DNA of 64,000 nt, from positions 128,001-192,000 of the forward strand of contig CAWAMW010000002.1 of assembly GCA_963783305.1 (NCBI GenBank). Reading direction: 5' to 3'. The position numbers and the translations under genes are program-made. Shown in pieces: positions 28,250 through 53,086 of the stretch; position 1 is the stretch's first letter; each line of letters begins with the position of its first letter. This DNA is from an uncultured Gemmatimonadales bacterium (GTDB lineage: Bacteria > Gemmatimonadota > Gemmatimonadetes > Longimicrobiales > RSA9). The notes under the pieces were generated by a model that saw only the letters and a program-made list of their open reading frames with translations, had not been told where the DNA came from and did not search any database.

Positions 28250-28278
28250 GGTTACCTTTTTTCCTGGCTATGGTCTGA

Positions 28279-29790: not shown

Positions 29791-29811
29791 CTGTTTCCTC
29801 AATATCTGAAT

Positions 29812-32800
29812 TTAGAACCGCGCCTCGACGTTGAACCCGAACGACCGCGTGGACGGCAGAACGTTCCACTCGATCCCCTGCCCGTTCGACGCGGAGCCGA
29901 ACTGGCCGGTGTCGGGGTCGATGTGCGGGACCTTCTTGTAGAAGAGCCACAGGTTGCGACCCTCGACGCCCACTGAGAGGCTGCCGAACGGCGTGCCGGT
30001 GAGCCACCTGCGCGGCAGCGTCCAGTCGAGCCGCACCTCACGAACGCGCGCGCTCGAAGCGTCGAACACGTTCCCCTCGTGAATGCCGCTGTCCGAGTAC
30101 CGGTTCCAGAAGGCCTGCATGCTCTGGACGGGCACGTCGTTGGGCACGTACGTCGTGTCACCGCTCTCGACCACCTGGATCACACCCTCATCGATGAAGG
30201 TGCCATCGCGGTTCACGGCGGTCTCCTCCGCCAGACCGTTGCGGCGCAGCATACCCACGGTGTTCGAGAAGATGCTGCCGCCCTCGCGCCAGTCGATCAG
30301 GAAGCTGCCCGTCACCGGCCCGAAGCTCAGCGTGTTGCTCACACCGATCTTGAAGTCGGGGTCGATGCTGCCCAGACGGATGATCTCGCCCTCCTGCCGC
30401 AGACCCGTGTTGGGATCGATGAGGATCTGGCCCGCATCGTTGCGCAGGAACCCGGGGCCGTAGAGCCCGAGCGACTGGCCCGGCACGGCCTTCACCTGGA
30501 GCGAGTTGAACCCGCTCGCGATGTTGAGCTCCTCCACGCCCGGAGCCAGCGACACGACCCTGTTCTTGTTGGTCGTGTAGTTCGCATCCACGCGCCAGCT
30601 GAAGTCGCGCATCCGCAGCGGCGTCAGGTTGACCGCGAGCTCGATCCCCTCATTGGAGACCTCACCGATGTTGGTGCGGTTCTGCGAGAAGCCCGTGGTC
30701 TGTGGGATCGGGATCGAGATGATCTGATCCTCGGTCCGCACGTCGTAGTACGTCAGGTCGAAGCCCGCGCGGCCGTTGAAGAGCTGCACCTCCGTGCCGA
30801 CCTCGTACGACGTCTGGTTCTGCGGCTTCAGATTGCTCGGCGGAATCGTGTTCGTCGCCTCGAAGCCGGTCCGCCCACCGAACGGGAAGGCGTTGTGCGT
30901 GGCGTACTGCCCCCAGATCTGCGAGGACGGGAAGTACCGGAAGTCCAGCTGGTACGGATCCTCGTCGCTGCCGACCTGCGCCCAGTTGGCGCGCACCTTC
31001 ATGTACGAGAGCACGTCACCGGCGATGTTGAACGCATCGGTCGGGATGAAGCTCACGTTCACCGACGGGTAGAAGAACGAGTTGTTCGCCTCCGGCAGCG
31101 TGGACGACCAGTCGTTACGCCCGGTCACGTTCAGGAACAGGTAGTCCCTGTAGCCCAGCGTCGCGTCGGCGAAGATCCCGTAGAGCTTCCGCTCCCAGTA
31201 GCTGTTCGTCGGCGTGCTGGAGTTCGCGTTGGCGAAGTTGTAGAGACCGGCGACCATGAGGCCACTGGCGACGTTCCGCTGGATCTCGCGCTCGCGCCAG
31301 TTCCAGTTCACGCCCAGGACCGTGCGGAGGTTGAAGTCCTCGTTCAGGTCCGTGCCCATCTCCGTCATGAGGTCGTAGTTCAGCTGCCGCTCCTGGATCA
31401 CGTCCAGGGAGAAGGCACCGTCATCACGACCGACCGTGCCGATGGCCGAGATGGCCCGGCGGTCCTCGGTGTAGCTGTCGAGACCGAACCGGCCGGTCAC
31501 CGTCATCCAGTCGAGGGGTGAGTAGTCCACCGACGCGCTTCCGAAGACACGGTCGACCTCGTTCTCGAACGGGTTCTCGTTCACCACCCAGTACGGGTTG
31601 TTGGAGAACGTGCCCACCGTCTTCTGGTTGCCCAGCTCGTCCTTGTAGTCCTTGAGCGCATCGATGTTGAACGTGCGGGGCAGCCCGTAGACCAGCGGCA
31701 GCAGCACGTTGGGATCGTTGCTCCCCGAGACCGCGCGGCCGATGCTCCCGGTGTTGATGTAGAAGCCCGACAGACGCGCGTTCAGCTCCGGCAGCAGCTT
31801 GTAGCCGGTGTTTACGTTGATCGACGTCCGGTTCAGCTTGCTCTGTGGCACCAGGCCCGCCTGGTCCTGATACGTCACGCCGAGGCGGAAGTCCGCTTCG
31901 TCGCTCGCCGCCGAAACCGAGACGCTGTGGATCGCCAGCAGCGCGTTGTCGAAGAAGTTCTCGACGTTGTTGGGCTGCGCGTTCAGGTTCACCATCTCGC
32001 CGTTGATGTCCTCGACCTCCTGCCCGGCGATCCGCGGACCCCAGCCGTTCAGCGACGTCGACGAGTACACGCCGCTCGTACCCTGCGCGTACTGGTTCTG
32101 GAACTCCGGCCAGACCAGCGCGTCCGACGTGCGGAGCGTGGTGCTGGCGGTGATCGTGTGACCCCCCACCGAACGACCCTTCTTGGTCGTGACCAGGATC
32201 ACGCCATCCTTCGCGCGCTGGCCGTACAGCGCCGCCGCGGCCGCGCCGCGCAGCACCGTCACCGACTCGATGTCATCCGCGCTCAGGTCGGCGCCGCGGT
32301 TGCCCACGTCCACCGCGCCCGTGAGCCGGTCCTGGCTCGTTCCGGCGACAATGTTCGAGTTCGAGATCGGCACACCGTCCACCACGAACAGCGGCTGGTT
32401 GTCGCCCGAAAGCGACGACACGCCACGGATCACGATCCGCGTCGAAGCGCCAATGTCACCGGACTGCGAGATGATGTCCACGCCCGGCGTACGAGCCGCC
32501 AGCGCGTCCACGAAGTTCGCCTCGCGAACTTCCGTCAGCTCATCACCCTGGATCGTCGCCACCGAGTACGCCACCTCGCGCACCTGGCGCTCGATCTGCT
32601 GACCCGTCACCACCAGCGCGTCCAGCTGCAGCGCCTCCGCCGACAGCTCGAAGTCCGCACGCGTGGTCGCCGTCGTCACGTCCACGGCCTGCTCGATCGT
32701 GGCGTACCCCAGGATCTCCACACGCACCGTCTGCGTCCCCACGGGGACGTCCCGGAGCAGGTAGCGGCCATCCACGTTCGTGAACGCATGACGGTTCGCC

Positions 32801-32967
32801 GCCGGGACCTGGACCGCGGCGCCCACTACCGGCTGCCCGCTCTCCACGTCCGTCACGACACCGGTCAGCGTGCCCGCGTCCTGTGCGCTCACCGGCGCCG
32901 CGAACAGCAGCAGCGCCAGCAATGCGCTCAGGGCGAGCATTCGATTGATCTTACCTAGGAACGGCAT
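29812..32967 (-). CDS. susC: SusC/RagA family TonB-linked outer membrane protein
   Basis: NQPLFVVDGVP, DIESVTVLRGAAAAALYG.RA..GVILVTTKKG, RNDWSSTL, terminal F. Confidence 0.95.
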   Translation of the reverse strand: MPFLGKINRMLALSALLALLLFAAPVSAQDAGTLTGVVTDVESGQPVVGAAVQVPAANRHAFTNVDGRYLLRDVPVGTQTVRVEILGYATIEQAVDVTTATTRADFELSAEALQLDALVVTGQQIERQVREVAYSVATIQGDELTEVREANFVDALAARTPGVDIISQSGDIGASTRIVIRGVSSLSGDNQPLFVVDGVPISNSNIVAGTSQDRLTGAVDVGNRGADLSADDIESVTVLRGAAAAALYGQRAKDGVILVTTKKGRSVGGHTITASTTLRTSDALVWPEFQNQYAQGTSGVYSSTSLNGWGPRIAGQEVEDINGEMVNLNAQPNNVENFFDNALLAIHSVSVSAASDEADFRLGVTYQDQAGLVPQSKLNRTSINVNTGYKLLPELNARLSGFYINTGSIGRAVSGSNDPNVLLPLVYGLPRTFNIDALKDYKDELGNQKTVGTFSNNPYWVVNENPFENEVDRVFGSASVDYSPLDWMTVTGRFGLDSYTEDRRAISAIGTVGRDDGAFSLDVIQERQLNYDLMTEMGTDLNEDFNLRTVLGVNWNWREREIQRNVASGLMVAGLYNFANANSSTPTNSYWERKLYGIFADATLGYRDYLFLNVTGRNDWSSTLPEANNSFFYPSVNVSFIPTDAFNIAGDVLSYMKVRANWAQVGSDEDPYQLDFRYFPSSQIWGQYATHNAFPFGGRTGFEATNTIPPSNLKPQNQTSYEVGTEVQLFNGRAGFDLTYYDVRTEDQIISIPIPQTTGFSQNRTNIGEVSNEGIELAVNLTPLRMRDFSWRVDANYTTNKNRVVSLAPGVEELNIASGFNSLQVKAVPGQSLGLYGPGFLRNDAGQILIDPNTGLRQEGEIIRLGSIDPDFKIGVSNTLSFGPVTGSFLIDWREGGSIFSNTVGMLRRNGLAEETAVNRDGTFIDEGVIQVVESGDTTYVPNDVPVQSMQAFWNRYSDSGIHEGNVFDASSARVREVRLDWTLPRRWLTGTPFGSLSVGVEGRNLWLFYKKVPHIDPDTGQFGSASNGQGIEWNVLPSTRSFGFNVEARF

Positions 32968-33168
32968 ACGTCCCCTCCCTCTCAAGTTTGCCTGTTTGAC
33001 TCATGACTTCTCTTCCCCCGTGGGAGACACACGCTCCCGTACGGGTGTCCTGGTGCACTTGGTCCTGCTGGGATTGGTCGGACCTGCCCCCGTTCCAGGT
33101 GGAACTCGGGGTTCCGGTACTGCGGCGAACATGGCTAGCTGTCGATGGCACCTCCTGTGAAGAAGTGC

Positions 33169-33292: not shown

Positions 33293-33550
33293 TCAGGCCC
33301 CCGCATCCCACTCGCCGGAGAGCGGGTCGACGCCGAGGGCGAGGGCGCGGTCCCTGCGCTCGCGCTCGAGGCGGTCGTGGTCGATGGCGTCGGCCAGTGC
33401 GTGGAGGAACCCCTCGACCTCCGCGGTGTGGCGGCACTGCTCCGCCACTCCCTTCTCTATGCACTCCGCGCAGCCGGCCCTGAGGGCGCGAGAGATGTTG
33501 GCGAGCTCGTCGACGCCGAGCCGTTCCGTTTCCATGCGTACTTTCAGCAT
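33293..33550 (-). CDS. Small hypothetical protein (85 aa) with CxxC
   Basis: Strong AGGAGG RBS; GCAEC...QCRH; co-oriented downstream of citF. Confidence 0.6.
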   Translation of the reverse strand: MLKVRMETERLGVDELANISRALRAGCAECIEKGVAEQCRHTAEVEGFLHALADAIDHDRLERERRDRALALGVDPLSGEWDAGA

Positions 33551-33605: not shown

Positions 33606-35216
33606 TCACGGGAGCACCTGCCAGACGGTGTCGAGCACCGTTCCATCCACCCATTTAACGATTGAAACAGGGCGTTGTGACACACGTGCGGGAGCTGGAG
33701 GCCCGCCGACGAGGGCCTCCACTTCCGCTTTCAGGACCGCCATGGGTTTGACGGGTAGAGTGCTGTTGATGGTTGCGCGGAGTAGATCTTCTCGCCGTGG
33801 GTTGATGGCGATCCCGCGCTCCGTAACGACGACATCGATGAGCTCGCCGGGCCCGGTGAGGGTGGTGACCCGATCGACGAGAACGGGAATGCGGTCGCGG
33901 AACGACGGCACGGCGAGGATGGTGCAGCCACTGGAGAGGCAGTTCTGCCAGCCGCCGATCCCGTGGAGCAGCATGCCGTCGGAGTGGGTGACGACGTTGG
34001 CGTTGAAGTCCACGTCCACCTCGGTGGCGCCGAGCACCACGGCGTCGACCATGGAAGCGAAGTTCCCCTTGCCGTGGTAGTTGTAGGAGGTGAAGGGGGA
34101 GGTGGCGATGTGGCGCGGGTCCCCAGCAATGGAGGCTACGCCGGCCAGGTCGAAGGTCTGGCCGTCGAGGATGTAGTCGGTAAGCCCCTCCTGGAGCAGC
34201 TCGACGAGGTATTGCGTGGAGCCGCCGCGGACGAATCGTGCCTTCACGCCCGCTTCCTTCATCATGGCGCGGAGGTAATCGACGAACGCCAGGGCGATGC
34301 CACCGGCGCCGGCCTGGAAGCTGAAGCCGTCGCGCATGATCCCGGCATCCCTGAGGAAGCGGGCGACGTACTCGGCGATGAGGAGCCGGTCGGGGCTCTT
34401 CGTGATCTCGGTGGTCCCGGAAACGATCTTCGACGGGTCGCCAACGGAGTCGACGACGACCACGGCGTCCACGTTGTTTCCCTGGATCTGCCATGGCACG
34501 CACGGGAACGGGACCAGGTTGTCGGTGACCACGATGACGTGGTTGGCGTAGATGGAATCGGCGAGCGCGAAGCCGAGAGAACCGCAGGCGGAGGGGCCGT
34601 GGGAGCCATCGGCGTTGCCGAACGCATCGGCCGTGGGGGCGGCGATGACCGCGATGTCGATCTTCACCTCGCCGTCCTGGATCGCCTGCCACCGGCCGCC
34701 GTGGGACCGGAGCACTCCGAGGCCGGGCATCCCACCGCGGGATGTGAGGTCGCCGAGGGGCCCGTTCATGCTCCCCTCGATGTGGTGGACCACGCCGCTC
34801 TCGATCAGGTCGATGACCGGCGCGTGCACCGCGAACGACGCGCTCGGGAACCACCGCAGCCCTTTCACTCCCATCTCGGCGGCCGCCTGCAGCGCCATGA
34901 GCGCCACGCGGTCTCCGTTCCGAAAATGGTGGTGGGTGGAGATGGTCATGCCGTCGCGGAGCCCCGCTCGCTCGAGCGCGGTGCGCAGGTCCGCGACGCG
35001 CTTGTCGCCGCTGGCCGGGTAGTCCCGCGCGGACCGGATGGGTGGGCCGTGCTTCGATCCCTCGGGTGCGTATTCACCCACGCCCCTGAACGGCACCTGC
35101 TCTTCCCCGTTGACGACCGTCGGGACGTCGCGACCGGCCGCGTTCCGGACGACCTCGCCGGCCGCTGGGCCGTCGAGCCACGGCGCGTTCCGCTCCGCCG
35201 CCACCAGAGCGCTCAT
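33606..35216 (-). CDS. citF: Citrate lyase alpha subunit (CoA/ACP transferase)
   Basis: GLRDGMTISTHHHFRNGD, RSHGGR, ACGSLG, FQAGAGG, TPG-like TGPGELIDVVVTERGIAINP. Confidence 0.92.
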   Translation of the reverse strand: MSALVAAERNAPWLDGPAAGEVVRNAAGRDVPTVVNGEEQVPFRGVGEYAPEGSKHGPPIRSARDYPASGDKRVADLRTALERAGLRDGMTISTHHHFRNGDRVALMALQAAAEMGVKGLRWFPSASFAVHAPVIDLIESGVVHHIEGSMNGPLGDLTSRGGMPGLGVLRSHGGRWQAIQDGEVKIDIAVIAAPTADAFGNADGSHGPSACGSLGFALADSIYANHVIVVTDNLVPFPCVPWQIQGNNVDAVVVVDSVGDPSKIVSGTTEITKSPDRLLIAEYVARFLRDAGIMRDGFSFQAGAGGIALAFVDYLRAMMKEAGVKARFVRGGSTQYLVELLQEGLTDYILDGQTFDLAGVASIAGDPRHIATSPFTSYNYHGKGNFASMVDAVVLGATEVDVDFNANVVTHSDGMLLHGIGGWQNCLSSGCTILAVPSFRDRIPVLVDRVTTLTGPGELIDVVVTERGIAINPRREDLLRATINSTLPVKPMAVLKAEVEALVGGPPAPARVSQRPVSIVKWVDGTVLDTVWQVLP

Positions 35217-36430
35217 TGCGGGCCTCCGTTCCCGAGTCCCATGGCCGCGGCCCGATCCACGAGACGGCGGGCGCGGAGCACGACGGGCGCATCGATCATC
35301 TTGCTGCCGAGGCTCACGACCCCGAGGCCGCGCGCCTCGGCCTCGCGGAAGGCCTCGACGATCCGGGTGGCCTTCTCGAGTTCTTCCGACGTGGGCGCGA
35401 ACGCTTCGTGGATGACCCGGATCTGGCGCGGGTGTACGCACCCCATGCCGGTGAAGCCCAGGGCACGGGCGGCCCGTCCCCAGCGAAGCAGCCCTTCCGC
35501 GTCCTGCACGTCGCCATACACCGAGTCGATCGCCTGGATTCCCGCCGCCCGCGCCGCGTTTACCAGCCGCTGCCGCGCCCACAGCGACTCGCTCCCCTCG
35601 GCGGTCTTCGCGACGCCCAGATCGGCGGTATAGTCCTCGAGCCCGATCGTGAGCGCCACGACACTCGGATCGGCACACGCGATGCCGAACGCGTTCTCCA
35701 CACCCAGCGCGGACTCCAGGATCGGCATGATCCAGATCGGCCGGTCTGGCTGCGCGGCGCCATGGCCCCTGAGCTCACGGATCCGCGCGACCACCGACCG
35801 CACCTGCGCCGCGTCCTCCACCTTGGGCACCAGCACCAGGTCCGGCGCCTCCGGAACGATGGCATCCAGATCCTCGAGGCCGAGCGGCAGCTGGTTGATG
35901 CGAACCATGCGCTCCGAACCGCCGAAATCCACGCAGCGGAGGGCGTTCCGGACCAGCAGTCGCGCCGCGCTCTTGGCGGCCGGGTGGACCGAGTCCTCGA
36001 GGTCGAGGATCACGGCATCGGGGCGATGGAGGCCGGCGTTGAGCATGAACTTCGGCTCGTTGCCCGGCAGGTAGAGGCGGGAGCGGCGCAAACGGTCGCG
36101 CGCGGTGGCGGGCGCGGGCGGACGGACCCCACACGGGATCGCGGCCTCTCGCTCCGGCGGCACCACCCCGGCCGCGCGCGCCGCCGCCTCCACCCGGGCC
36201 GCGATCACCCAGGGCACCGCGCCCTGGTCGTCGGCCACGATCCGGGCCCCGGTGACCGCGAGCGCGTCCAGCGTCTCCCGGATCGTGCGACGGATCGAGT
36301 CGCCGTAAAGCGCCTCGACCCTGGAGGTCAGCACGATCTCCGCTTCCGCGTCGGGATCCACGGAGACGTGGAGGTCCGACCGCGCGCTCGCGCCCACCAT
36401 GGCCACCGCGCCCGCCGCCGCGTCGGTCAT
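35213..36430 (-). CDS. citE: Citrate lyase acyl carrier protein (CitD) fused to the beta subunit (CitE, HpcH/HpaI aldolase-citrate lyase family)
   Basis: N-terminal ~90 aa ARSD...S.V..LYG..I...DQGA...I.ARVEAA (CitD-like), then RRSRLYLPGN, DLEDSV, VRIN, PKVE, GLEDY, HPRQI, MIDAPV. Confidence 0.88.
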   Translation of the reverse strand: MTDAAAGAVAMVGASARSDLHVSVDPDAEAEIVLTSRVEALYGDSIRRTIRETLDALAVTGARIVADDQGAVPWVIAARVEAAARAAGVVPPEREAAIPCGVRPPAPATARDRLRRSRLYLPGNEPKFMLNAGLHRPDAVILDLEDSVHPAAKSAARLLVRNALRCVDFGGSERMVRINQLPLGLEDLDAIVPEAPDLVLVPKVEDAAQVRSVVARIRELRGHGAAQPDRPIWIMPILESALGVENAFGIACADPSVVALTIGLEDYTADLGVAKTAEGSESLWARQRLVNAARAAGIQAIDSVYGDVQDAEGLLRWGRAARALGFTGMGCVHPRQIRVIHEAFAPTSEELEKATRIVEAFREAEARGLGVVSLGSKMIDAPVVLRARRLVDRAAAMGLGNGGPQ

Positions 36431-37641
36431 CCCGCCGCCGTGCCCGTTGCCGGCACGCGCGCATCCAGCGCGGCGATGATGGCGTCGGTGACCTCGGTGG
36501 TGGTGGCGGCGCCGTTCTCGATGGCGCGGGGTCCACCCGGGATCCGCATCATGTCGTAGGTCCGCACGCGGCCTTCACGCACCACCGTGGCCACGGCCTC
36601 GCGGACGCGGTCGGCGCGCTCGCACTCACCCACGTGGTCCAGGAGCATGGCGGCGCTCAGGATCATGGCGATGGGGTTGACGATCGGCGGATCCAGCGCC
36701 TCGTACTTGGGGGCGGAGCCGTGGGTCGGCTCGAAGACCGCCACGCGGTCGCCGATGTTCCCGGAGCAGGCGAAGCCGAGACCCCCAACGAGGCCCGCGA
36801 AGGCGTCGCTCACGATGTCGCCGAACATGTTGCCGGCCACCAGAACGCCGTAGTCCTCCGGGTTCTTGGTCAGCCACATCATCTGCGCGTCAATGTTCGT
36901 GGACCAGAGCTGGATGTCCGGGAAATCGGCGTGCACCTTCCGGGCTTCCGCCTCCATCATCCCCGACGTCTCCCGCAGTACGTTGGGCTTCTCGCACACG
37001 GTCACGCTGCCATAGCCGTGGTCCACCGCGTACTGGAAGGCGGCGCGCATGATCCGGTGACACGCGGTGCGCGTGAACACGCGCGTGGAGATGGCCAGGT
37101 CGGCGGGCGGCGTGGGAGCGAACCGGGTGAACTTCGGGTGGGTCCGAAACGCCTCCATCACCAGCTCGGGAGGATTGGTCCATTCCACACCGGCATAGAG
37201 CCCCTCGGTGTTCTGCCGGAAGATCACCACGTCCACTTCGGGCTCGTCCAGCGCGCGATCCATGGTCTGCCGCACGAAGTTGAGCGGATTGCCGGGAAAC
37301 GAACGGCAGGGCCGGATGCACACGTCGAGATCGAACCGCTGCCGGAGCCCGACGATGGGGCTGTAGTACACCAGCCCGCGGTCGCGGAGCGTGGGCTTCA
37401 GCTCCGCCGTGGCTTCATCCTTCGGCTTGGAGGTGATGGCGCCGAAGAGTCCGAGCTCGTGCTCGTCCAGCAGCGCGACCGTCCGCTCCGGCAGGGCGTT
37501 CCCCTCTTCGCACCAGAACTCCCAGCCGATGTCCCCGTGCACGTACTCCGCTTCGAAGCCCACGGCGTCCAGCACCCGCACCGCTTCCGGGAGCACCACC
37601 TTGCCGATGCCATCGCCCGGCATTGCCACGACCTTCCTCAT
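36427..37641 (-). CDS. Isocitrate/isopropylmalate dehydrogenase family enzyme, homoisocitrate-dehydrogenase-like
   Basis: PGDGIG, YSPIVGLRQ, RQNTEGLY, NMFGDIVSD, FEPTHGSAP, NPIAMILS. Confidence 0.88.
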   Translation of the reverse strand: MRKVVAMPGDGIGKVVLPEAVRVLDAVGFEAEYVHGDIGWEFWCEEGNALPERTVALLDEHELGLFGAITSKPKDEATAELKPTLRDRGLVYYSPIVGLRQRFDLDVCIRPCRSFPGNPLNFVRQTMDRALDEPEVDVVIFRQNTEGLYAGVEWTNPPELVMEAFRTHPKFTRFAPTPPADLAISTRVFTRTACHRIMRAAFQYAVDHGYGSVTVCEKPNVLRETSGMMEAEARKVHADFPDIQLWSTNIDAQMMWLTKNPEDYGVLVAGNMFGDIVSDAFAGLVGGLGFACSGNIGDRVAVFEPTHGSAPKYEALDPPIVNPIAMILSAAMLLDHVGECERADRVREAVATVVREGRVRTYDMMRIPGGPRAIENGAATTTEVTDAIIAALDARVPATGTAAG

Positions 37642-37674
37642 ACGAACTCGCCTCCTGGTTGGATCCGTTCCCCG

Positions 37675-39603
37675 TCAGCCCGCGACCCGCGCGCCCTGTG
37701 CTCTCTGGCTTCCCGCGACCACCAGCCGCTGCGGCACCGCCCCCAGCGATGGGAACCGCCACACCCGCTCTCGCCACCGGATCTCGCTCCGGCGGAAGTC
37801 CACTACGACCTCATCGCCGGGGATGATCGTCGGCTCCCCCGCTTCCACCGCCTCCGCCAGACCCGTCAGCACGGCCTCCACGAACGACGGCGCCTCAATG
37901 CAGATGAGGCCGTTGTTGAACGCGTTCCGGAGGTAGGTCTGGGAGAAGCTCCCCGCGATGACGAGCGGGATGCCGCGCGCCTGCAGCGCCGTCGCCGCCT
38001 GCTCCCGGCTCGACCCCGTCCCGAAGTTCCAGCTGCCCACCAACACGTCGCCCGCGAACACACGCTCCGCGAAGGACGGGTCGTAGTTCGCCATGACCAC
38101 CGCGGCCATCTCCTCGGGCGACCGGCTCTCGTAGGTGTGCTCCTTCCCGTAGATCCCGTCGGTGTTCAGGTTCTCGCGCGGCAGGAACACGAGCCGACCG
38201 GTGACGCTCTCGGGGAACCCGTCGATGATCTCTACCTGCTCCACGGGCGGGGCCGGGGCCTCGAACCGCTCGATGTCGCGCTCCGGCGCGCCCGGTCCGA
38301 GCGCCCCATCCGTGATGAAGCCGGCCACCGCCGATTCCGCAACGACGGCGGGCGAGGCCAGGTAGACCTCGGCGGTACGATCGCCCATGCGGCCCTGGAA
38401 GTTCCGGTTCGTCGCCGAAACACCCACCTCACCGGGGCCCAGCAGCCCCGCGCCCAGGCCGATGCACGGGCCGCAGCCCGGGGGGAGCGGGATCGCCCCC
38501 GCAGCCAGCAGGTCGCGCCAGACGCCGCTGGCCTCCGCGCGGTCCTGGATCTCACGGCTTGCGGCCGCGACATAGAGCTCCACGCCATCGGCTACTCGCC
38601 GTTCGCGAAGCAGGCTCGCCGCCACCTCGAGGTCCTCCAGCCGGCCGTTCACGCACGACAGCAGATACGCCTTCTGGATCGAGATCCGTCCCGCCTCGGC
38701 CACGCTCCGCCCCACCTGCACCGACTGCGGACCGGCCAGATAGGGGCGCACGCGCGAGAGGTCCACCGTGATGCGCGCGGCGTAGTCGGCGTCGGGGTCC
38801 GGTCGCGGCGGGGCGGTGCGCCAGGAGACGAGCGCCTCGTCGGTGATGCGCTCCGGGTGGACCGACTCCAGCCGCTCCTGGCGCGCCTCCATGTATTCCA
38901 GCGTACGCGCGTCCACCGGGAACCAGCCGGTGAGGGCGCCCCACTCGGTGGTCATGTTGGCGATGCTCATCCGATCGGCCATGTCCAGCGAGGCGACACC
39001 GGGTCCGGTAAACTCCACCGCCGCGTTCAGCACCTCGCCCTGGTCATACAGGTGGCAGAGGGTGAGGATGAGGTCCTTGCCAGTCACGCCCGCGGGAAGC
39101 TCCCCGTCCAGCCAGACCTGCACCGTCCGCGGGATCTGCCACCAGAACTCGCCCGTGGCCCAGATCGCGGCAGCGTCCGTCCGGACGACCGGGGTCCCCA
39201 GCGCCCCCACAGCCCCGTAGGTGTTGGCGTGCGAGTCGCTCGCCACCGCCAGGCTCCCGGGCAGCGCGAAGCCACGCTCCATCATGATCTGATGGCCGAT
39301 GCCGGTCCCGGCAGGGTGGAACGCCAGGTCGTGCTCACGGCAGAAATCCCGGATCCGGTGGTACTTCTCCAGGTTGTCGGGCTCGTGGTTCTGGATGTCG
39401 TGATCCAGCACCACCACGGGCTGCCGCGGGTCGGCCATGCCCTCCGCCCCCATGGCCTCGAACTTCGCCATGACGGCCGCGGTATTGTCGTGCGTGAGGA
39501 TATGCCGGGGTCGGAGCGTGACCATATCGCCCGGCCGAAGCGGCCGGTCCGGTCCCGCGACCATGTGGCTGCGGGCGATCTTCTCCACTATCGTGGCACC
39601 CAT
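37675..39603 (-). CDS. lysF: Homoaconitase-like aconitase, single-chain fungal Lys4/LysF type
   Basis: HDNT, DHD, GIGHQ, ASDSH, TPVVRTDAAAIWATG..WWQIP, [4Fe-4S] SCVN and CGPC, fused swivel domain NTDGIY and NFGTGSSREQA. Confidence 0.82.
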   Translation of the reverse strand: MGATIVEKIARSHMVAGPDRPLRPGDMVTLRPRHILTHDNTAAVMAKFEAMGAEGMADPRQPVVVLDHDIQNHEPDNLEKYHRIRDFCREHDLAFHPAGTGIGHQIMMERGFALPGSLAVASDSHANTYGAVGALGTPVVRTDAAAIWATGEFWWQIPRTVQVWLDGELPAGVTGKDLILTLCHLYDQGEVLNAAVEFTGPGVASLDMADRMSIANMTTEWGALTGWFPVDARTLEYMEARQERLESVHPERITDEALVSWRTAPPRPDPDADYAARITVDLSRVRPYLAGPQSVQVGRSVAEAGRISIQKAYLLSCVNGRLEDLEVAASLLRERRVADGVELYVAAASREIQDRAEASGVWRDLLAAGAIPLPPGCGPCIGLGAGLLGPGEVGVSATNRNFQGRMGDRTAEVYLASPAVVAESAVAGFITDGALGPGAPERDIERFEAPAPPVEQVEIIDGFPESVTGRLVFLPRENLNTDGIYGKEHTYESRSPEEMAAVVMANYDPSFAERVFAGDVLVGSWNFGTGSSREQAATALQARGIPLVIAGSFSQTYLRNAFNNGLICIEAPSFVEAVLTGLAEAVEAGEPTIIPGDEVVVDFRRSEIRWRERVWRFPSLGAVPQRLVVAGSQRAQGARVAG

Positions 39604-39657
39604 CAATCCTCCCAGGCGGCCTCCGGCCGCGCGCTGCGAAGTTCGGGATCCATCAGG

Positions 39658-41091
39658 TCAACGGTCCGCGCGGGTCGTTTTCATGAGGTCGCGGACCGAG
39701 TCGAGGCTGTCGAGAGCCCAGACGGCGTCGACCAGGCGCCGCCGGGCGGGCGCGCTCAGAACGGGCTCGGCGAGAGCCGTGAACTTCTCCTCGACCTCGT
39801 CGTCGGACAGTGGGTTCCGAGGGTCGCCCTTGGGGTAGTCGAGCTGCTTCTCCAGCGTCAGGCCATCCGCCGTCTCTATCGTGACGTGCACCCGCTGAAG
39901 CGCCGGGAACAGCGCCTCGATCTCCGGGTCCGCCACCACCTCCACCTTCGGAAGCTGCGCCCGGATCTCCTCGTCCAGGATCCGGTCCGGCTCCAGCTGC
40001 CGTGGCGTCACCTGTCGGTCCACGATGGCCGCCGCAATGACGTAGGGCAGGCTGTGGTCCGCCGTCTCCTTGCTGCGGGGGTCGTACTTGCTGGGGTCCG
40101 CCAGGATGTCGGCGGCCCGGGCGAGGGACCGGATCCGGACCTTGGTGATGCGGGCGGGCGACAGGTCGTGCTCGCGCACCAGCTCGAGAACCGCCGAGAT
40201 CGGTGCGTGCGTCAACGCTTCCGTGGGGAACGCCTTCATCCCGCAGCGCTCGATCCGCCAGCTCTCGCCCAGGCCGTCGGTCAAAACCTCCAGCTTCCAT
40301 TCCGGGCCCATCACATGGACGAGCCCTTCCTTGCCGTCCAGGACATGCTCCGGGCCGGTGTAGCCCTCCCCCGCGAGCAGCGCCGCCAGGACCCCGGACT
40401 GCGTGGCCATGGGATCCGCGGTGTTCTTCATCATGGTGAGCTTGCCCGCCGTGATCGCACCCAGCGTCGCGTGGCGGGAGGCGCTGATCCCGATGGCGTG
40501 CTGGATCCGCGCCGCATCCAGGCCGAGCATCCGACCGGCCACCACGGGCGAGGCGAATGCCGTCAGCGTGGCGTGATGCCAGCCGCGCTCACGGATCCCC
40601 GGGAACGCAGCCTCGCAGAGGCGCATCTCCACCTCGTGTCCAAGCACGATCCCCAGGACGAGCGCGCGGCCGTCCATCCGCCCTCGCTCCGCCATGGCGA
40701 TTGCGGCCGGGATGAGGTCCGACGGATGCGACGGGTCCTGCTGCCAGTAGATGTCGTTGTAGTCCATCACGCGGACCATCAGCGCGTTCGCGAGCGTGGC
40801 CGAGACCACGTCCAGGCCGAGGCCGCTCCCGATCACCGTGCCCGGGCCGGAGCCCGCTACCTCGCTCAGCACCCGCAGCGCGATCCGCACGTCCTCCTGC
40901 CGGTACCCACCCAGCGCACAGCCCAGCGAGTCGAGCAGGTACCGCTTCGCCTCGTGGACCGCGCGCTCGCTCAGCGCCTCGTACTGAAGCCCCGCCGCCC
41001 AGCGCGACAGCGCGCCCGTAACCGTTTCCGTCGCCTCGACCACGGTATTTCCAACCGCACCCGCCATCACCGCCTCCAGGACCGGGTTCAC
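39658..41091 (-). CDS. prpD: MmgE/PrpD family dehydratase (2-methylcitrate dehydratase-like)
   Basis: LLDSLGCA, RVMDYND...SHPSD, GWHH, ETADHSLPY, PKGDPRNP. Confidence 0.88.
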   Translation of the reverse strand: MNPVLEAVMAGAVGNTVVEATETVTGALSRWAAGLQYEALSERAVHEAKRYLLDSLGCALGGYRQEDVRIALRVLSEVAGSGPGTVIGSGLGLDVVSATLANALMVRVMDYNDIYWQQDPSHPSDLIPAAIAMAERGRMDGRALVLGIVLGHEVEMRLCEAAFPGIRERGWHHATLTAFASPVVAGRMLGLDAARIQHAIGISASRHATLGAITAGKLTMMKNTADPMATQSGVLAALLAGEGYTGPEHVLDGKEGLVHVMGPEWKLEVLTDGLGESWRIERCGMKAFPTEALTHAPISAVLELVREHDLSPARITKVRIRSLARAADILADPSKYDPRSKETADHSLPYVIAAAIVDRQVTPRQLEPDRILDEEIRAQLPKVEVVADPEIEALFPALQRVHVTIETADGLTLEKQLDYPKGDPRNPLSDDEVEEKFTALAEPVLSAPARRRLVDAVWALDSLDSVRDLMKTTRADR

Positions 41092-41200
41092 CTGCTACAA
41101 CCTACGAACCCCGCCGCGCGATTTCTGTGGGGCAAGGGCTGAATTACGGATCAGCGCGGCCGCCCGGATAAACCTTACAAGGGCGTGGGGCGGTGGCCGT

Positions 41201-41737
41201 TCAGCCCCCCTTGAACGGGAGATATGCCATGAAATCGGCGTGGTGGACGATGATGGCCTCCGTCGAGCGGCTCACCAGCTCGCCCTCGCCGGCGTGCGCG
41301 GCAATGATGTGACAGACCGCATCCGGTACGCCGCACTCCAGCGCCAGGGCGACGCCGGTGAACGGGTGCCGCAGGGCCCGGCCCCGCCGGCTCTGCCGCA
41401 CCTCACCGGCCACTTCCTCGTACTCGAGCAGCTTGCCCACGTCGGCCAGGATGGCCCCCGCTATGACCGTGTCCAGGTCGATGGTCAGCGACCCGCCCAT
41501 GAACTCCAGCATGGCCTCGGCGCCCCGGCGGGCGATGTGCACCACGCACCGCTTGTGCTCCATGAACGTGGCCGGGCAGTCCGGGACGAGGAGGGTGAAC
41601 GGGATCCGCTCCAGGTCCTCGGCCCCGAGGGGGCTGCGCTCCAGCGCCCGCTCCCACGTCCGGGCCACGCATTCCCGAAGCTCCTCACCCTCGATCCACT
41701 CCAGCTCCGGCCACAACCGCTCCACCGCCTGCCGCAT
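41201..41737 (-). CDS. HD-fold (HDIG-like) protein with the HD dyad read as AD
   Basis: FMEH..., GAILADVGKLLEY, RHPFTG, HIIAAH, EAIIVHHAD. Confidence 0.8.
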   Translation of the reverse strand: MRQAVERLWPELEWIEGEELRECVARTWERALERSPLGAEDLERIPFTLLVPDCPATFMEHKRCVVHIARRGAEAMLEFMGGSLTIDLDTVIAGAILADVGKLLEYEEVAGEVRQSRRGRALRHPFTGVALALECGVPDAVCHIIAAHAGEGELVSRSTEAIIVHHADFMAYLPFKGG

Positions 41738-42050
41738 CGCTCCACTCCGTTCCCAGTGAGCCGGGGGGTCCCCCGGAATTGGACGTACCCGTGCCGCGGG
41801 TGCGCTGGGCTTCGCACGGAATCCGTAGCATCCGCGGCCTCCGGCGGCAACAGGCACATCCACCGGGTGGGACGACTCCCCTTGATAAAACAGTGGTGAG
41901 GGGCGAACTTTTTAGCCGGTCGACCTGCGGGTACGAAGCCCCAACCCGTTGCTGCCCAACATCTTGGCCAGAGGCTCGATACTTGTACAAGCGCAGGGGC
42001 GCCGCGCGGTGCGTACGCGCAGGCGGAACTGCACCTTCTCCCAGAGCGTC

Positions 42051-42671
42051 ATGCGGAGCAACCCTACGAAGGCGACTCGCCCGGGCGATCCAGCCGGGGG
42101 CCGGCCCGAGGCACGCCCGGGCTTCTCGCTGGCCGAGATGCTGGTGGTCCTCGTAGTGGTGAGCGTCATGGCGTACCTGGGCGTCCCGCGTATCGAGGTC
42201 GTGCGGTTCAGAATGGACGGCGCGGCCTGGGGCGCGATGGCCGCCCTGATGTCAGCGCAGCGGCTGGCGGTGAAGGAGCAGCACAACGTCGTGATCCTGT
42301 TCGACCCGGATCATCGACGGCTCGTGATCCACCAGGATCGCGACAACAGCGGGACCATGGACGCGGCGGAGCCGGTGCGGACCGTCGCCTTTGACGACGG
42401 GGTGGCCTTCGGCCGGGGGGGCGCGCCGTCGCTCGGGGACCAGAGCGGAGTGATCACGTTCACCGGGCTGCATGACGGGCTCCGGACCGTCCGCTTCGTC
42501 CGCAACGGCAGCACCAGCGAGGATGGGATCTTCTATCTGACTTCCACCCGAGCCAGCCGCGGCCCCGGATACGTCGAGGACAGTCGCGCCATCCGGATCG
42601 ACCGACCCACCGGCCGGGTCACCTGGTTCGCCTACCGTGGCGCGGATACCGGCTGGGTCGAGGGGACCTGA
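42051..42671 (+). CDS. GspH/FimT-like minor prepilin
   Basis: GFSLAEMLVVL type IV prepilin site; AQRLAVKE...F..NG. Confidence 0.85.
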   Translation: MRSNPTKATRPGDPAGGRPEARPGFSLAEMLVVLVVVSVMAYLGVPRIEVVRFRMDGAAWGAMAALMSAQRLAVKEQHNVVILFDPDHRRLVIHQDRDNSGTMDAAEPVRTVAFDDGVAFGRGGAPSLGDQSGVITFTGLHDGLRTVRFVRNGSTSEDGIFYLTSTRASRGPGYVEDSRAIRIDRPTGRVTWFAYRGADTGWVEGT

Positions 42672-43072
42672 TGAGCGAGCGCCCGCCCTCGAACCGCGAC
42701 GGCTTCACCATCGCCGAGGTCCTCCTCGCACTGGTCCTCCTGAGCTTCATGGTGATGGGGTTCCAGGCCGCGACGGGCGAGATCATCCACTATGCGGCGC
42801 AGAGCGATCGGAAGGCGGTGGCCGTCCAGCTGGTCCAGAGCCGCGTGAGCATGATCCGGCTCGACCCCCGCTACACCACGCTGCAGGCGACGTACGAGGA
42901 GACCGGCACCACGTTCACCGACTACCCCGCGCTCACCCGCAAGACCGTGGCGGAGCGGACCCTTAAGACCCAGGAGACGGGCGTCCTCGACTACACGACC
43001 CTTACCGTGACGGTCGACGGCGCGGGGCTCCGGGCCCCGGTCTCCCGCACCATCGTGGTGGCGGCGCCATGA
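42671..43072 (+). CDS. PilV/GspI-like minor prepilin
   Basis: GFTIAEVLLAL; TGATG overlap. Confidence 0.85.
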   Translation: MSERPPSNRDGFTIAEVLLALVLLSFMVMGFQAATGEIIHYAAQSDRKAVAVQLVQSRVSMIRLDPRYTTLQATYEETGTTFTDYPALTRKTVAERTLKTQETGVLDYTTLTVTVDGAGLRAPVSRTIVVAAP

Positions 43073-44238
43073 GGGCGATGCGGTCCGCGCGGGAGGGTGT
43101 CTCGCTGGTCGAGCTCATGGTGGCGCTGACGCTCTTCTCCATCCTCCTCGCCTCCACGCTCGGCTTCTACCGGCGGCAGGGGAGCGCGTTCACGGAGGGC
43201 AATGACCGGATGGCGGTGATGCAGAACCTCCGGTACGGCGTCAACTCACTCGTCCAGAACATCCGCACGGCGGGCGTCGGGGTGCCGAGCAAGCAGCCAG
43301 TGCTGGTGTACGCCGATGTGGACGTGATCGCGTTCAACGCCGACTACGCCACCAATATCCCGAACGATTTTTTCGCCGTCTACTACGACCAGCGCCTCGC
43401 GAACGCCGCCGTCTCGGCCCTAACGCCGGACCGGAAGTTCACAATTCCGCATTCCACGTTCGCCTACCCTGATGTCGCGTATTACCTGGGGAGCGGGAAC
43501 AGTCCGGCGGAAACGATCATCTTCTATTTCGAGCTCGACGCGGCCACGCCACGGCGGGACGACTACACGCTCTACCGGCAGGTGAACGACCAGGCGCCGG
43601 AGGTGGTGGCGCGACGGCTGCTCAAGACGGACGCGGAATTCTTCACCTATTACGTGCTCGACTCCGGCCAGCCGGAGAGCCCCGTGGCCGAGGTGCCAAC
43701 CTCGTACCTGCCGGTGGCGCATACCATCACCAACCATGGCGCGCCGACAGACGTGGGGGTGGTGGCGGGGGTGGACAGCGTACGCGCCGTGCGAGTGACG
43801 TACGCGGCGACCAACGGGCTGTCGGGGTCCAGCGAGTCGGTGCGGGAGATCACGCGGCTGATCCGTATCCCGAACGCCGGTCTGGCGAACCGCCCGAGCT
43901 GCGGCAACCGGCCGCTCCTCGGCACCACGCTCACCGCGGCGGGGTTCGCGCCCACGCAGAGTGCGAACGGGCACATCGAGTTGAGATGGGCCCCGGCGGT
44001 GGACGAGATTACGGGTGAGCAGGATGTGCTCCGGTACGTGGTCTGGCGGAGGGTCGGCGACGCCGGGCCATGGGGGGATCCGCTCACCAGCATCGCACCC
44101 GGCGACGCGGCCTACGTGTATCGCGATTTCGGCGCACAGCCCGATGTGCTGTACAGCTATGCCGTGGCGGCCCAGGACTGTACCCCGCAGTATTCGGCGA
44201 TGAGCGAGAGCGGGACGGCGCAATGGAACACACCGTGA
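43069..44238 (+). CDS. PilW/GspJ-like minor prepilin with a C-terminal FN3-like domain
   Basis: GVSLVELMVAL; IRTAG; C-terminal LRW...YVVWRR...YRD...YSYAVAA. Confidence 0.82.
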   Translation: MRAMRSAREGVSLVELMVALTLFSILLASTLGFYRRQGSAFTEGNDRMAVMQNLRYGVNSLVQNIRTAGVGVPSKQPVLVYADVDVIAFNADYATNIPNDFFAVYYDQRLANAAVSALTPDRKFTIPHSTFAYPDVAYYLGSGNSPAETIIFYFELDAATPRRDDYTLYRQVNDQAPEVVARRLLKTDAEFFTYYVLDSGQPESPVAEVPTSYLPVAHTITNHGAPTDVGVVAGVDSVRAVRVTYAATNGLSGSSESVREITRLIRIPNAGLANRPSCGNRPLLGTTLTAAGFAPTQSANGHIELRWAPAVDEITGEQDVLRYVVWRRVGDAGPWGDPLTSIAPGDAAYVYRDFGAQPDVLYSYAVAAQDCTPQYSAMSESGTAQWNTP

Positions 44239-46022
44239 CCGGCGCGCGGATGCCGCGCCTCCGGACGGACCAGCCGGGGATTGCGCTGCTGATCGTCATG
44301 CTCGTCACCATGGCGGTGGCGGCCATCGCGGCCGGCGCTGCGCTCATCGGAGCCAACGCCTTCCTCATCAACGAGTACGACAGCCAGTCGAGCCTGCTGG
44401 AGTCGGTCGCGGATGCCGGCCTCGAGCTCGGCCGTGCGCGCCTCAATGCCAACCCGGGCCTCTACAGCCCCACGTCGGTCTCGACTCTGGAGCTGCGGGC
44501 AGCCGTCTACGATGCGGACGGAGCCGTGCTACCAGGCGTGCAGCGCACGCTCTACTCCATGCCCATGGGAGGCGGGATTGGCGAGTTCGGCAACTTCGCC
44601 GCGCTCGTGGCCGTGGCCGAGGACGGCGAGGGGGGCCGGGCCGTACGGCGCCTGGACCTCGTCCAGGAGAGCTTCGCCGTCTACGCCTACTTCACCAACA
44701 GCGAGCCCAGCTCCATCTACTTCGGCAACCACGACGTGCTGACGGGCCCCGTCCACAGCAACTCGGACATCAAGATCAGCTCCACTGGCGCCACCTTCCG
44801 CGGCCCGGTCACCACCGCCGGCGCCTTCGTGGGAAGCGAGTACGCGACATTCCACGACGACACGACCTCCGGGGCCGCTCCGGTCCTCATGCCGAGCAGC
44901 GCTCAGCTGACCCGGCTCAGGGATCGGGCCTCCCCCGCGTCCCTCGCGTTCATCGCTGCCGCAGGCGGCACAGAGGGGCAGTCCACGCTCCGGCTCCATT
45001 TCGTGACCCGGGACGTCGATGGCGACGGGGTTGAGGAGGGATTCGTCCGGGCCTACCGGTCCCCCGACGCCGCGTGGGTGAGCGGGAACATCCCGTCGGG
45101 CGGCTCGCTCGCGACCACGGCCAACTGCGGGCATTACGAAGCGGCGAACGGTCCGTTCAGCGCGGTGATCAACGATCAGAGCGGCCATTCCACGTCCGCG
45201 ATCCTGACAGACCCCGGCTACAGGCGGTGTTTCCTGGGGGGTGCCGACGAGCTGAACACCAGCGCGGCCAGTCGGCCCAGCGGCGTGTTCTTCCCTTCCA
45301 CTCCCGCGCCCTTCCCCGCCGGCTCGTGGCTCCCGTTCCCGGGCACCGTGAGCGCGCCGATCACGGGGTCGTACGGCGACGAGGCCTACCTCTTCCCCAT
45401 CGACCGCCGCTTCAACGCCGCCTTTCGGGGCGTCATCTTCGTGGACGGGAAGGTGGTGGTGAGCGGGACCGTCCGCGGCCGTCTGACCCTGGCCGCGACC
45501 GGTAACATCATCATCGGCGACGACCTGCGCTACGCCACCGACCCCGGCGCGGGGACGTGTGAGGACATTCTGGGGCTCTTCTCCGGCCAGAATGTCATCG
45601 TGGCCGACAACACGCTGAACGCGCCCCGGATCCCCACCGGGACCGGCGTGTCCACCAGCACCTATTACACGTACAATGACACTCCAGACGAGAACATCCA
45701 CGCGTCGATCCTCGCCCTCAACCAGTTCACCGTGCAGAACCCGAGCTCCGGGGCCAACAGCGGCAACAGCCCGGAAGAGTGCAACGGTGTCAAATGGGGT
45801 CGCGGCTGCCTGAACGTGACCGGAGGGCTGATTCAGAACACGCGCGGCATTGTGGCGTACGGGAGCGGCACCGGCAACGTGAAGAGCTACAGCCATGACA
45901 CCTGCACCTTCACCGCACCGCCCCCGTATTTCCCCAGCACCGGCCACTTCTTCCGCGGCCGCTATTACGAGGTGGACCCGACCGGTTTCACCATCGGCGC
46001 CTACTTCGACGCGCTGAACTGA
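44235..46022 (+). CDS. Large PilX/GspK-like minor pilin
   Basis: GIALLIVML (no Glu5), ADAGLE, GPVHSN, several Cys, DVDGDG loop. Confidence 0.8.
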   Translation: MTGARMPRLRTDQPGIALLIVMLVTMAVAAIAAGAALIGANAFLINEYDSQSSLLESVADAGLELGRARLNANPGLYSPTSVSTLELRAAVYDADGAVLPGVQRTLYSMPMGGGIGEFGNFAALVAVAEDGEGGRAVRRLDLVQESFAVYAYFTNSEPSSIYFGNHDVLTGPVHSNSDIKISSTGATFRGPVTTAGAFVGSEYATFHDDTTSGAAPVLMPSSAQLTRLRDRASPASLAFIAAAGGTEGQSTLRLHFVTRDVDGDGVEEGFVRAYRSPDAAWVSGNIPSGGSLATTANCGHYEAANGPFSAVINDQSGHSTSAILTDPGYRRCFLGGADELNTSAASRPSGVFFPSTPAPFPAGSWLPFPGTVSAPITGSYGDEAYLFPIDRRFNAAFRGVIFVDGKVVVSGTVRGRLTLAATGNIIIGDDLRYATDPGAGTCEDILGLFSGQNVIVADNTLNAPRIPTGTGVSTSTYYTYNDTPDENIHASILALNQFTVQNPSSGANSGNSPEECNGVKWGRGCLNVTGGLIQNTRGIVAYGSGTGNVKSYSHDTCTFTAPPPYFPSTGHFFRGRYYEVDPTGFTIGAYFDALN

Positions 46023-46585
46023 TGGGCGTGGGCGGGTCCTGGGCTCGAAACGGATTTACCGTGGTGGAGGTACTGGTCGCGCTCGCCATCACCGCGCTGC
46101 TGGGGGCGCTCGTGGTCCCCGCCATCCTCGCCAGCGTCGATCGCGCGCGAGTGGATGCCGCCGAAGAGTCGCTGAAAGCCATAGGGGAGGCGGTTGACCT
46201 TTTTGCCGATCGTGTGCAGGAGCACCCGGGCGCCATGAGACAGTTGCTCATCCCGATCACGACGGCCGACGCGGATATCTGCGGCAACCCGTACAACGCC
46301 GGGCGGGCAAACCAGTGGGGTGGGCCGTACCTCGACCGGGCGGTCCCGACCGCGGGGGTGCCCATCGGGATCGGCACCGTCCAGAACGCGTTCACGAGCC
46401 GCGCGGATCCGAGCGGGATCGACTACCTGCAGCCGGTGATCACCGGTGTACTCCTGGAGGATGCCGCCGCGTTGGATGTGCGCATGGATGGCGGCGATGG
46501 CGCCGCGAGCGGGGCCATCCAATGGACGGCAGCGGGCGGCGGGTTCGTCATAGTGAACTACCTGATTCCTTACCGGGACTGCTGA
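46022..46585 (+). CDS. GspG-like prepilin, paralogue 1
   Basis: GFTVVEVL; DICG; WGGPYL; DGGDG; C-terminal Cys. Confidence 0.85.
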   Translation: MGVGGSWARNGFTVVEVLVALAITALLGALVVPAILASVDRARVDAAEESLKAIGEAVDLFADRVQEHPGAMRQLLIPITTADADICGNPYNAGRANQWGGPYLDRAVPTAGVPIGIGTVQNAFTSRADPSGIDYLQPVITGVLLEDAAALDVRMDGGDGAASGAIQWTAAGGGFVIVNYLIPYRDC

Positions 46586-46586
46586 C

Positions 46587-47120: not shown

Positions 47121-47121
47121 C

Positions 47122-47703: not shown

Positions 47704-47714
47704 CCGGGCGGAAG

Positions 47715-52764: not shown

Positions 52765-52768
52765 TACT

Positions 52769-53065: not shown

Positions 53066-53086
53066 AATCTCTCTTCCCTATCCCGG

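Follow-up and report, generated by a model that had tools for sequence, protein, structure and literature searches.

A conserved six-gene operon of Gemmatimonadota predicted to degrade lysine-derived 2-oxoadipate through homocitrate

The window analysed here, a stretch of 64 kb from contig CAWAMW010000002.1 of an uncultured Gemmatimonadales bacterium (the source genome), contains six co-oriented and tightly packed open reading frames (ORFs) on the minus strand at 41737-33606. From 5' to 3' the genes are separated by 109, 54 and 33 bp, and the last three are joined by two ATGA overlaps. These coordinates and junctions bear out the six genes and ATGA overlaps of the initial annotation of this DNA. 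In the order of transcription the genes are as follows:

41201..41737, minus strand: HD-like protein, 178 aa, with a TIGR00277 (HDIG) score and conserved ligand residues
39658..41091, minus strand: MmgE/PrpD-family protein, 477 aa (PF03972 and PF19305), predicted (S)-homocitrate <-> cis-homoaconitate (de)hydratase
37675..39603, minus strand: single-chain Lys4/LysF-type homoaconitase, 642 aa (TIGR00139), predicted to interconvert cis-homoaconitate and homoisocitrate
36427..37641, minus strand: beta-decarboxylating dehydrogenase of the Iso_dh family, 404 aa (PF00180), predicted NADPH-dependent 2-oxoadipate carboxylase
35213..36430, minus strand: CitD-CitE fusion, 405 aa, predicted homocitryl-CoA lyase acting on free CoA
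33606..35216, minus strand: CitF-type CoA-transferase, 536 aa (PF04223, 434.6 bits), predicted to attach homocitrate to CoA

When genomes were scanned with the aconitase-family protein as query, 572 relatives were confirmed, of which the best 80 loci were analysed. The closest named relatives belong to Gemmatimonadota (Longimicrobiales), and the carriers as a whole comprise, by record title, Gemmatimonadota, Acidobacteriota, one Latescibacterota and one Polyangia. All six genes are present in 55 of the 80 loci, in the same order in every one of the 55. Where a locus has room on both sides the set is complete in 52 of 56 cases, the remaining four being three without the PrpD-family gene and one without the last three genes. 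The clustering is not due to chance and defines a real, conserved operon; conservation of the gene set, a point the initial annotation had raised for checking, thus held. The set is accessory, as the aconitase is present in 13/201 genomes sampled from the phylum and in 31/201 genomes of an acidobacterial order. No additional gene is conserved across lineages beside this CitDEF form of the operon in the 80 loci, no riboswitch was found in the window or in four related loci, and a promoter and terminator search of the operon returned nothing informative.

The aconitase-family protein carries PF00330 and PF00694 in a single ORF and scores 645.1 on the homoaconitase equivalog model TIGR00139, above the cut-off of 529.9. 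We take this model to be built on fungal Lys4/LysF. The same cut-off is passed by the aconitases of the variant loci described below (669.8, 753.1 and 625.1), while the operon protein is far under other models of the superfamily (AcnA 151.4/686, LeuC 178.3/560; score/cut-off here and below). Three Fe-S cysteines, C317, C377 and C380, are invariant across 67 aconitase sequences. The motifs quoted by the initial annotation are all present, namely TPVVRTDAAAIWATG at residue 137, WWQIP at 154 and NTDGIY at 480 in the aconitase, together with YSPIVGLR at residue 93 of the dehydrogenase. The accessible part of PMC3556520 describes fungal homoaconitases as interconverting homoaconitate and homoisocitrate only, the dehydration of (R)-homocitrate being performed by aconitases. 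The assignment of a Lys4-type homoaconitase made earlier is thus supported by the model score, and the need for a separate dehydratase beside it by that paper.

The dehydrogenase is a PF00180 member that reaches no NCBIfam cut-off. It passes none of the models of the homoisocitrate dehydrogenase (HICDH) type (AksF2 264.5/540, AksF 258.7/500, iso_homocit_dh 131.8/680), nor those for isocitrate dehydrogenase (IDH) and LeuB (175.4/567.3 and 166.7/353.2, respectively); the models listed include none for fungal Lys12. Its best PDB matches are homoisocitrate dehydrogenases, and YSPIVGLR aligns to YSSPIVALR of PDB 3ty3, presumably an S. pombe protein. The SPI..xR loop is kept in 68/68 homologues and is without the Asn found in the corresponding SLNVTLR loop of the NADP-IDH encoded by the same genome. 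A quick tree of 85 rows places the dehydrogenases of the cluster in a group of 30 rows (SH-aLRT 94, which is under the tool's star), outside the IDH clade with the SxNVxLR loop (99) and the LeuB clade (98). The alignment to 3ty3 supports the earlier label of an HICDH-like enzyme. The cofactor motifs are of a different type: the protein contains HGSAPKY (67/68 homologues) and TYDMMR, as expected for NADP, and not the NAD-type HGSAPD, which occurs as HGSAPDI in the HICDH of PDB 1x0l. The source genome provides an internal control, its NADP-IDH containing SLNVTLR, HGTAPKY and TYDLERQ, and its second IDH-like protein and its LeuB-like protein containing HGSAPDI. Judged by its motifs, the operon dehydrogenase joins a substrate loop of the HICDH type to cofactor residues of the NADP type.

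Several proteins related to the dehydrogenase, with SPVIQLR as their loop, carry a fused CinA/MoCF-type domain (P0140, P0141, P0143, P0145, P0146, P0154, P0156 and P0158), and two further relatives are fused to an RraA-like aldolase (P0148) and an M20 peptidase (P0196). Fusions of 715-740 aa were considered as possible homocitrate synthase fusions and rejected, the partner being the CinA/MoCF-type domain.

All three citrate-lyase components score under their model cut-offs (CitD 49.5/63.5, CitE 264.9/443.4, CitF TIGR01584 472.6/501.45). In an alignment with the Klebsiella, E. coli and Peptoclostridium proteins, the column of Ser14 of Klebsiella and E. coli CitD, which we take to be the attachment site of the prosthetic group of the acyl carrier, is occupied by Arg17 of the CitD domain. 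Arg stands in this column in 63/68 CitD homologues, the other five not being matched by the pattern. The genes citC, citG and citX were not found in the source genome, which is 96% complete, and citG was found in 0/58 carrier handles, some of which are duplicates. The Arg at the Ser14 position and the failure to find citG indicate that this CitDEF is not a classical citrate lyase, contrary to the initial view of an ordinary citrate-lyase complex, and these data together with the failure to find citC and citX point to a CitF/CitD-CitE complex that most likely uses free CoA esters. CitF is 43% (43.1%) identical to its Peptoclostridium counterpart and 39% to enterobacterial CitF, and CitE is 45.5% identical to the Peptoclostridium copy, which adjoins methylaspartate mutase and is probably a citramalate lyase.

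The second gene had been labelled PrpD/MmgE. Membership of the superfamily stands (PF03972 and PF19305) but orthology with PrpD does not: the protein is under every PrpD cut-off (81.9/575, 60.4/458 and 95.4/950), and its nearest solved structures are IDS epimerase (134.5 bits) and IRG1/cis-aconitate decarboxylase (120.8), against only 59.9 bits for the 2-methylcitrate dehydratase structure. As judged from its sequence it is a member of the MmgE/PrpD superfamily only and not a PrpD orthologue. A stereochemical argument gives an enzyme of this family a place in the operon. CitE and citryl-CoA lyase are, we assume, Si-type enzymes (Si-face specificity), and would therefore handle (S)-homocitryl-CoA when the oxoacid is 2-oxoglutarate. 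The accessible text of PMC5690661 has aconitases working on the oxaloacetate-derived arm of their substrate and PrpD acting on the acyl-derived arm to give 2-methyl-cis-aconitate, for which a syn elimination is proposed; it also reports that Salmonella PrpD dehydrates citrate. (S)-Homocitrate would have the geometry recognised by PrpD and not by aconitase, and its need for PrpD-type dehydration may explain why two unrelated lyase modules (see below) both accompany a PrpD-family gene.

The HD-like protein passes TIGR00277 (30.1, cut-off 27.6) and has invariant H61, D99, H124, H148, H165 and D168, the other metal ligands being retained, but the His-Asp doublet of HD-domain phosphohydrolases is replaced by AD, the motif reading ILADVGK in 67/68 homologues and ILCDVGK in one. 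It has no PDB relative under E 0.06, and an Atlas search returned HD clusters only. The gene is kept with both lyase modules. These features describe an HD-fold metalloprotein to which the route proposed below assigns no step.

We consider it rather probable, on the evidence that follows, that the operon degrades lysine-derived 2-oxoadipate by running the upper aminoadipate pathway backwards, yielding 2-oxoglutarate and an acetyl unit. The dehydrogenase would convert 2-oxoadipate, CO2 and NADPH to homoisocitrate, which the homoaconitase would dehydrate to cis-homoaconitate; the PrpD-family protein would hydrate this to (S)-homocitrate, and CitF with CitD-CitE would transfer homocitrate to free CoA and split the product into 2-oxoglutarate and acetyl-CoA. 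If the CoA donor is acetyl-CoA, the net product would be acetate. We infer homocitrate as the substrate, its (S) configuration, the direction and the CoA donor; that homocitrate is handled in one direction or the other is highly probable. Four observations favour carboxylation and cleavage as the direction: the cofactor motif is of the NADP type, a variant of the ATP-consuming kind exists, the neighbouring genes belong to catabolic steps upstream, and the downstream biosynthetic genes were mostly not found. The initial annotation had named a reverse, carboxylating breakdown of 2-oxoadipate as one of its options, and it is this option that the direction evidence (motif, variant and catabolic neighbours) supports; the NADP-type motif, the ATP-dependent variant, the link to lysine catabolism and the stereochemical argument by which a PrpD-family enzyme is needed are additions to it.

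The association with lysine degradation is illustrated by two genome samples, in which a carrier is a genome with an aconitase match, all six genes not being checked per genome. In the phylum sample (201 genomes) lysine 6-transaminase (LAT) is present in 10/13 carriers and 8/188 other genomes, piperideine-6-carboxylate dehydrogenase (Pcd) in 11/13 and 31/188, and at least one of the two in 13/13 and 35/188. The benzoyl-CoA-reductase family, used as a lifestyle control, is found in 9/13 carriers and 40/188 others; within the holders of this family LAT still distinguishes carriers (8/9) from the rest (6/40). In 58 further carriers, with eight apparent duplicates dropped, LAT or Pcd was present in 24 of 25 Gemmatimonadota by a hand split. 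In the sample from the acidobacterial order it is a saccharopine-dehydrogenase-family gene that is enriched in carriers (19/31, compared with 4/170 other genomes). The source genome itself has LAT (597.3/520.8). HglS, tried as a mutually exclusive alternative, was uninformative, occurring in 0/201 genomes of the phylum.

A second form of the cluster has lysine-degradation genes beside it. At locus G020 the genes for the HD protein, the dehydrogenase, the PrpD-family protein and the aconitase (44-53% identity) lie behind a citryl-CoA lyase and a pair of ATP-grasp ligase genes, with no CitDEF. The divergent genes there encode Lrp, a class III aminotransferase and Pcd (763.5 vs 730). By hand count the ligase/lyase module occurs, whole or in part, in 17/80 metagenome loci (four of these with the lyase alone) and Cit genes in 15/80, and no locus has both. 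LAT and Pcd, both over cut-off, adjoin the cluster in loci L151 and L153, while in L160 Pcd passes its cut-off and LAT is truncated where the locus ends; these three soil loci are probably one lineage. Among 120 homologues listed for the L151 ligase, two are named Chthoniobacterales and one Acidobacteria. The acid-binding loop of the variant ligase reads GSGSGVASQEQ, compared with FGGITRCDD in the succinyl-CoA ligase of the source genome, and the protein scores about 24-28 bits on the citrate-binding family of ATP-citrate lyase (ACL; cut-off 26.8). A glutaryl-CoA-dehydrogenase-like (GcdH-like) gene lies in L151, L160 and L170, assigned from a motif and 52-54% identity to the GcdH-like gene of the source genome only. 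An aldehyde dehydrogenase beside L104 was considered as a Pcd and dropped, being closest (55%) to a different dehydrogenase of the source genome.

Other arrangements were also seen. Loci L137-L141 have a citryl-CoA-lyase-like gene that is not accompanied by a ligase, their dehydrogenase motif is of the NAD type, and they may run in the synthesis direction; the HD homologues of L140 are named Ignavibacteriaceae. L101:2296-6772 contains two aconitase-family genes and an intact HD motif, with no PrpD-family gene in the locus.

The remaining gene content of the source genome bears on what the operon is likely not to do. AcnA, NADP-IDH and two citrate synthases are encoded elsewhere, all over their cut-offs, as are the diaminopimelate lysine genes dapA, dapB, dapH and lysA; lysW and lysX were not found in this genome. 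A role of the operon in lysine synthesis is therefore unlikely. A methylcitrate branch, which the initial annotation had also allowed, fails on chemical grounds: 2-methylisocitrate is a tertiary alcohol that a dehydrogenase cannot oxidise, and the operon has a dehydrogenase and not PrpB. A closed 'homo-reverse-TCA' cycle (TCA, tricarboxylic acid) of CO2 fixation via 2-hydroxyglutaryl-CoA dehydratase was likewise rejected, as the source genome has no PF06050 match and the matches inspected in two further carriers are parts of clusters for benzoyl-CoA reductase.

The genome also has a LeuB-like gene over cut-off (L084) and a domain-swapped single-chain LeuD-LeuC-like aconitase (L081:8735-10975, G000:C2) that passes no NCBIfam cut-off. 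An HMGL-like synthase (L083) is under both the isopropylmalate synthase and the homocitrate synthase cut-offs; its tentative reading as a leucine gene is based on a counterpart that adjoins a LeuB-like gene in G059. Together the three may form an unusual leucine set. Separately, a GcdH-like gene adjoins the second, NAD-type IDH-like gene (L082:7547-10300, G000:C17).

Several observations weigh against 2-oxoadipate degradation by this route. NADP-type dehydrogenases usually run oxidatively and ACL can run in reverse, and the GcdH-like gene beside the variant fits forward running too. PrpD is a more distant relative of the PrpD-family protein than IDS epimerase and aconitate decarboxylase are, and the trees contain no fungal Lys4 or Lys12 sequence. 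No lysine gene recurs beside the CitDEF form in the 80 nearest genome loci, and the source genome has no NF050084-type Pcd. By the hand split, only 2/31 Acidobacteriota carriers have LAT or Pcd, 29/31 being without both. The saccharopine-dehydrogenase-family gene that takes their place in the acidobacterial order is assigned to the family only, and its query was taken from the genome of a carrier, a bias towards carriers. The best solved relative of this protein is PH1688, a lysine 6-dehydrogenase, on which a literature search found no paper. Kin are not independent, as four of the 13 phylum carriers are of one genus and L151, L153 and L160 look like one lineage; this, with the carrier-derived query, means that the Fisher values overstate the association.

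The same enzymes could run forward without making lysine, converting acetyl-CoA and 2-oxoglutarate to 2-oxoadipate, CO2 and NADPH and then to glutaryl-CoA, a scheme that burns glutamate or 2-oxoglutarate, makes NADPH and conserves thioester energy. The GcdH-like genes flanking the variant in L151, L160 and L170 and the NADP-type motif are consistent with this, and ACL and CoA transferases are reversible. However, LAT and Pcd in the same loci already provide 2-oxoadipate, dedicated synthases exist for that direction, and a lyase without thioester hydrolysis would, by its equilibrium, keep homocitrate very low, making the scheme unlikely. Forward running into alpha-aminoadipate lysine biosynthesis, in which CitDEF would stand in for homocitrate synthase, was proposed in the initial annotation and is the least credible of the alternatives. 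Homoaconitase and HICDH-like genes are indeed biosynthetic in fungi and Thermus (accessible part of PMC3556520), but lysX occurs in only 4/58 carrier handles, representing three distinct genomes, the source genome combines dapA, dapB, dapH and lysA with no detected lysW or lysX, and the neighbouring LAT and Pcd are catabolic. Ignavibacterium album, which has the same CitE-CitD fusion, is moreover described in the accessible text of PMC3362086 as without a complete lysine synthesis route.

That text reads the CitF and CitE-CitD fusion of I. album as enzymes either of citrate fermentation or of a reverse TCA cycle of an unconventional kind. A second citrate branch of this kind would agree with the family labels of CitDEF, with the citrate dehydration reported for Salmonella PrpD (PMC5690661, in part) and with the PFOR/OGOR-family genes of the source genome. 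It is nevertheless improbable: a complete and separate AcnA, IDH and citrate synthase set is present, beside which PrpD would be redundant; the aconitase passes the homoaconitase and not the AcnA model; the dehydrogenase is without the SxNV loop and lies outside the IDH clade; citC, citG and citX were not found in the genome; and the variant ligase has GSGSGVASQEQ in place of the FGGITRCDD of the succinyl-CoA ligase and reaches only about 24-28 bits on the ACL citrate-binding family. Equally doubtful is the use of the same architecture on another 2-oxoacid pair, such as (S)-citramalate/2-oxobutyrate or a longer homologue (2-oxopimelate). CitE (45.5%) and CitF (43.1%) are nearer to the Peptoclostridium copy than to enterobacterial citrate lyase, the PrpD-family protein is of a divergent lineage and the dehydrogenase passes no cut-off, but the aconitase is over the homoaconitase cut-off and far under the LeuC/isopropylmalate isomerase models, the dehydrogenase is outside the LeuB clade, and the lysine-gene neighbours indicate a C6 2-oxoacid. 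The operon is thus most likely an undescribed reverse-homocitrate pathway of lysine catabolism, made of known folds.

No paper describing this set of genes, or the reductive carboxylation of 2-oxoadipate, was found in a search that had most subscription journals and supplements outside its reach; the cluster is not described in the accessible parts of PMC11237513, nor mentioned in those of the Melioribacter paper. Our broader proposal, held with little more than even confidence, is of an O2-independent, CO2-fixing degradation of lysine via (S)-homocitrate that is widespread in uncultured Gemmatimonadota, Acidobacteriota, Ignavibacteria and soil Verrucomicrobia. It would use two interchangeable cleavage modules, a citrate-lyase-like complex without the acyl-carrier prosthetic group and an 'ATP-homocitrate lyase', and its homoaconitases would be a bacterial family of close kin to fungal Lys4. 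If this is true, lysine would be anaplerotic without O2, the 2-oxoglutarate of the transaminase being regenerated, NADPH spent and no further reducing power released. The route would constitute a third fate of 2-oxoadipate, by which heterotrophs living in soils, peat and sediments would fix CO2. Added to the known activities would be (S)-homocitrate dehydratase, homocitryl-CoA lyase, transferase and ligase, and an NADPH-driven 2-oxoadipate carboxylase. Cluster genes now read as citrate lyase or ACL, and the hints of a reverse TCA cycle drawn from them, would then be misassigned, and ACL-like genes in such operons would be unsafe as markers of autotrophy. Should the I. album genes lie in this cluster, the possible reverse-TCA role of CitF and CitE-CitD (accessible text of PMC3362086) would be corrected as well.

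The surroundings of the operon include an 85-aa ORF directly past citF (33293-33550, minus strand) with a good ribosome site and no Pfam match, which is not a conserved neighbour, and, 0.6 kb past the operon, a SusC/SusD-like pair of TonB-dependent receptor and lipoprotein with a downstream lipoprotein (27398-32985, minus strand). About nine prepilin/pseudopilin-type genes with N-methylation motifs lie at 41949-48263 and 54375-55007 (plus strand). The pntAB genes for NAD(P) transhydrogenase (51361-54229, minus strand; beta subunit PF02233), about 10 kb from the operon, are a possible source of NADPH and are not a recurrent neighbour in related loci. In 12-14 Gemmatimonadota loci, HMG-CoA-synthase-like, thiolase and small Zn-ribbon genes stand beside the operon (L004, L006, L007, L012, L013, L015, L016, L024, L026, L028, L043, L065 and L071), with an ADP-forming acyl-CoA ligase in seven.

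Compared with known systems, the operon resembles the upper alpha-aminoadipate pathway of fungi (Lys20/21, Aco2, Lys4/LysF, Lys12) and Thermus, sharing a Lys4-type single-chain homoaconitase, the SPIVxLR loop (3ty3) and the use of two isomerisation enzymes. It differs in having no homocitrate synthase, a PrpD-family protein in place of aconitase, a lyase module, an NADP-type instead of an NAD-type motif and, mostly, no detected lysW or lysX; the homocitrate enantiomer and the direction are likely opposite. The CitD, CitE and CitF folds are those of citrate lyase (EC 4.1.3.6) and clostridial citramalate lyase (34-46% identity), but CitD is fused to CitE, Arg replaces Ser14, citC, citG and citX were not found, the models are under cut-off, and a homoaconitase and a dehydrogenase stand alongside. 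The variant has the ATP-grasp subunit, CoA-binding subunit and citryl-CoA-lyase domain, split or fused, of ACL and of the CcsAB and Ccl proteins of the reverse TCA cycle, whose logic of reductive carboxylation followed by cleavage the proposed route would also share; it differs in its acid-binding loop, a predicted substrate one carbon longer, a catabolic context and the finding of no closed CO2-fixation cycle. With the 2-methylcitrate cycle (PrpC, PrpD, Acn, PrpB) the operon has in common a PrpD-family and an aconitase-family enzyme predicted to act on a Si-type tricarboxylate, whereas its PrpD-family protein fails the PrpD cut-offs and a dehydrogenase replaces the PrpB lyase. Finally, 2-oxoadipate dehydrogenase with GcdH, and HglS, which converts 2-oxoadipate to D-2-hydroxyglutarate, start from the same entry metabolite, and the HglS route likewise leads towards 2-oxoglutarate (PMC7286885, accessible part). 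HglS, however, is an oxygenase that was found in none of the 201 sampled phylum genomes, whereas the route proposed here would fix CO2 and need no O2.

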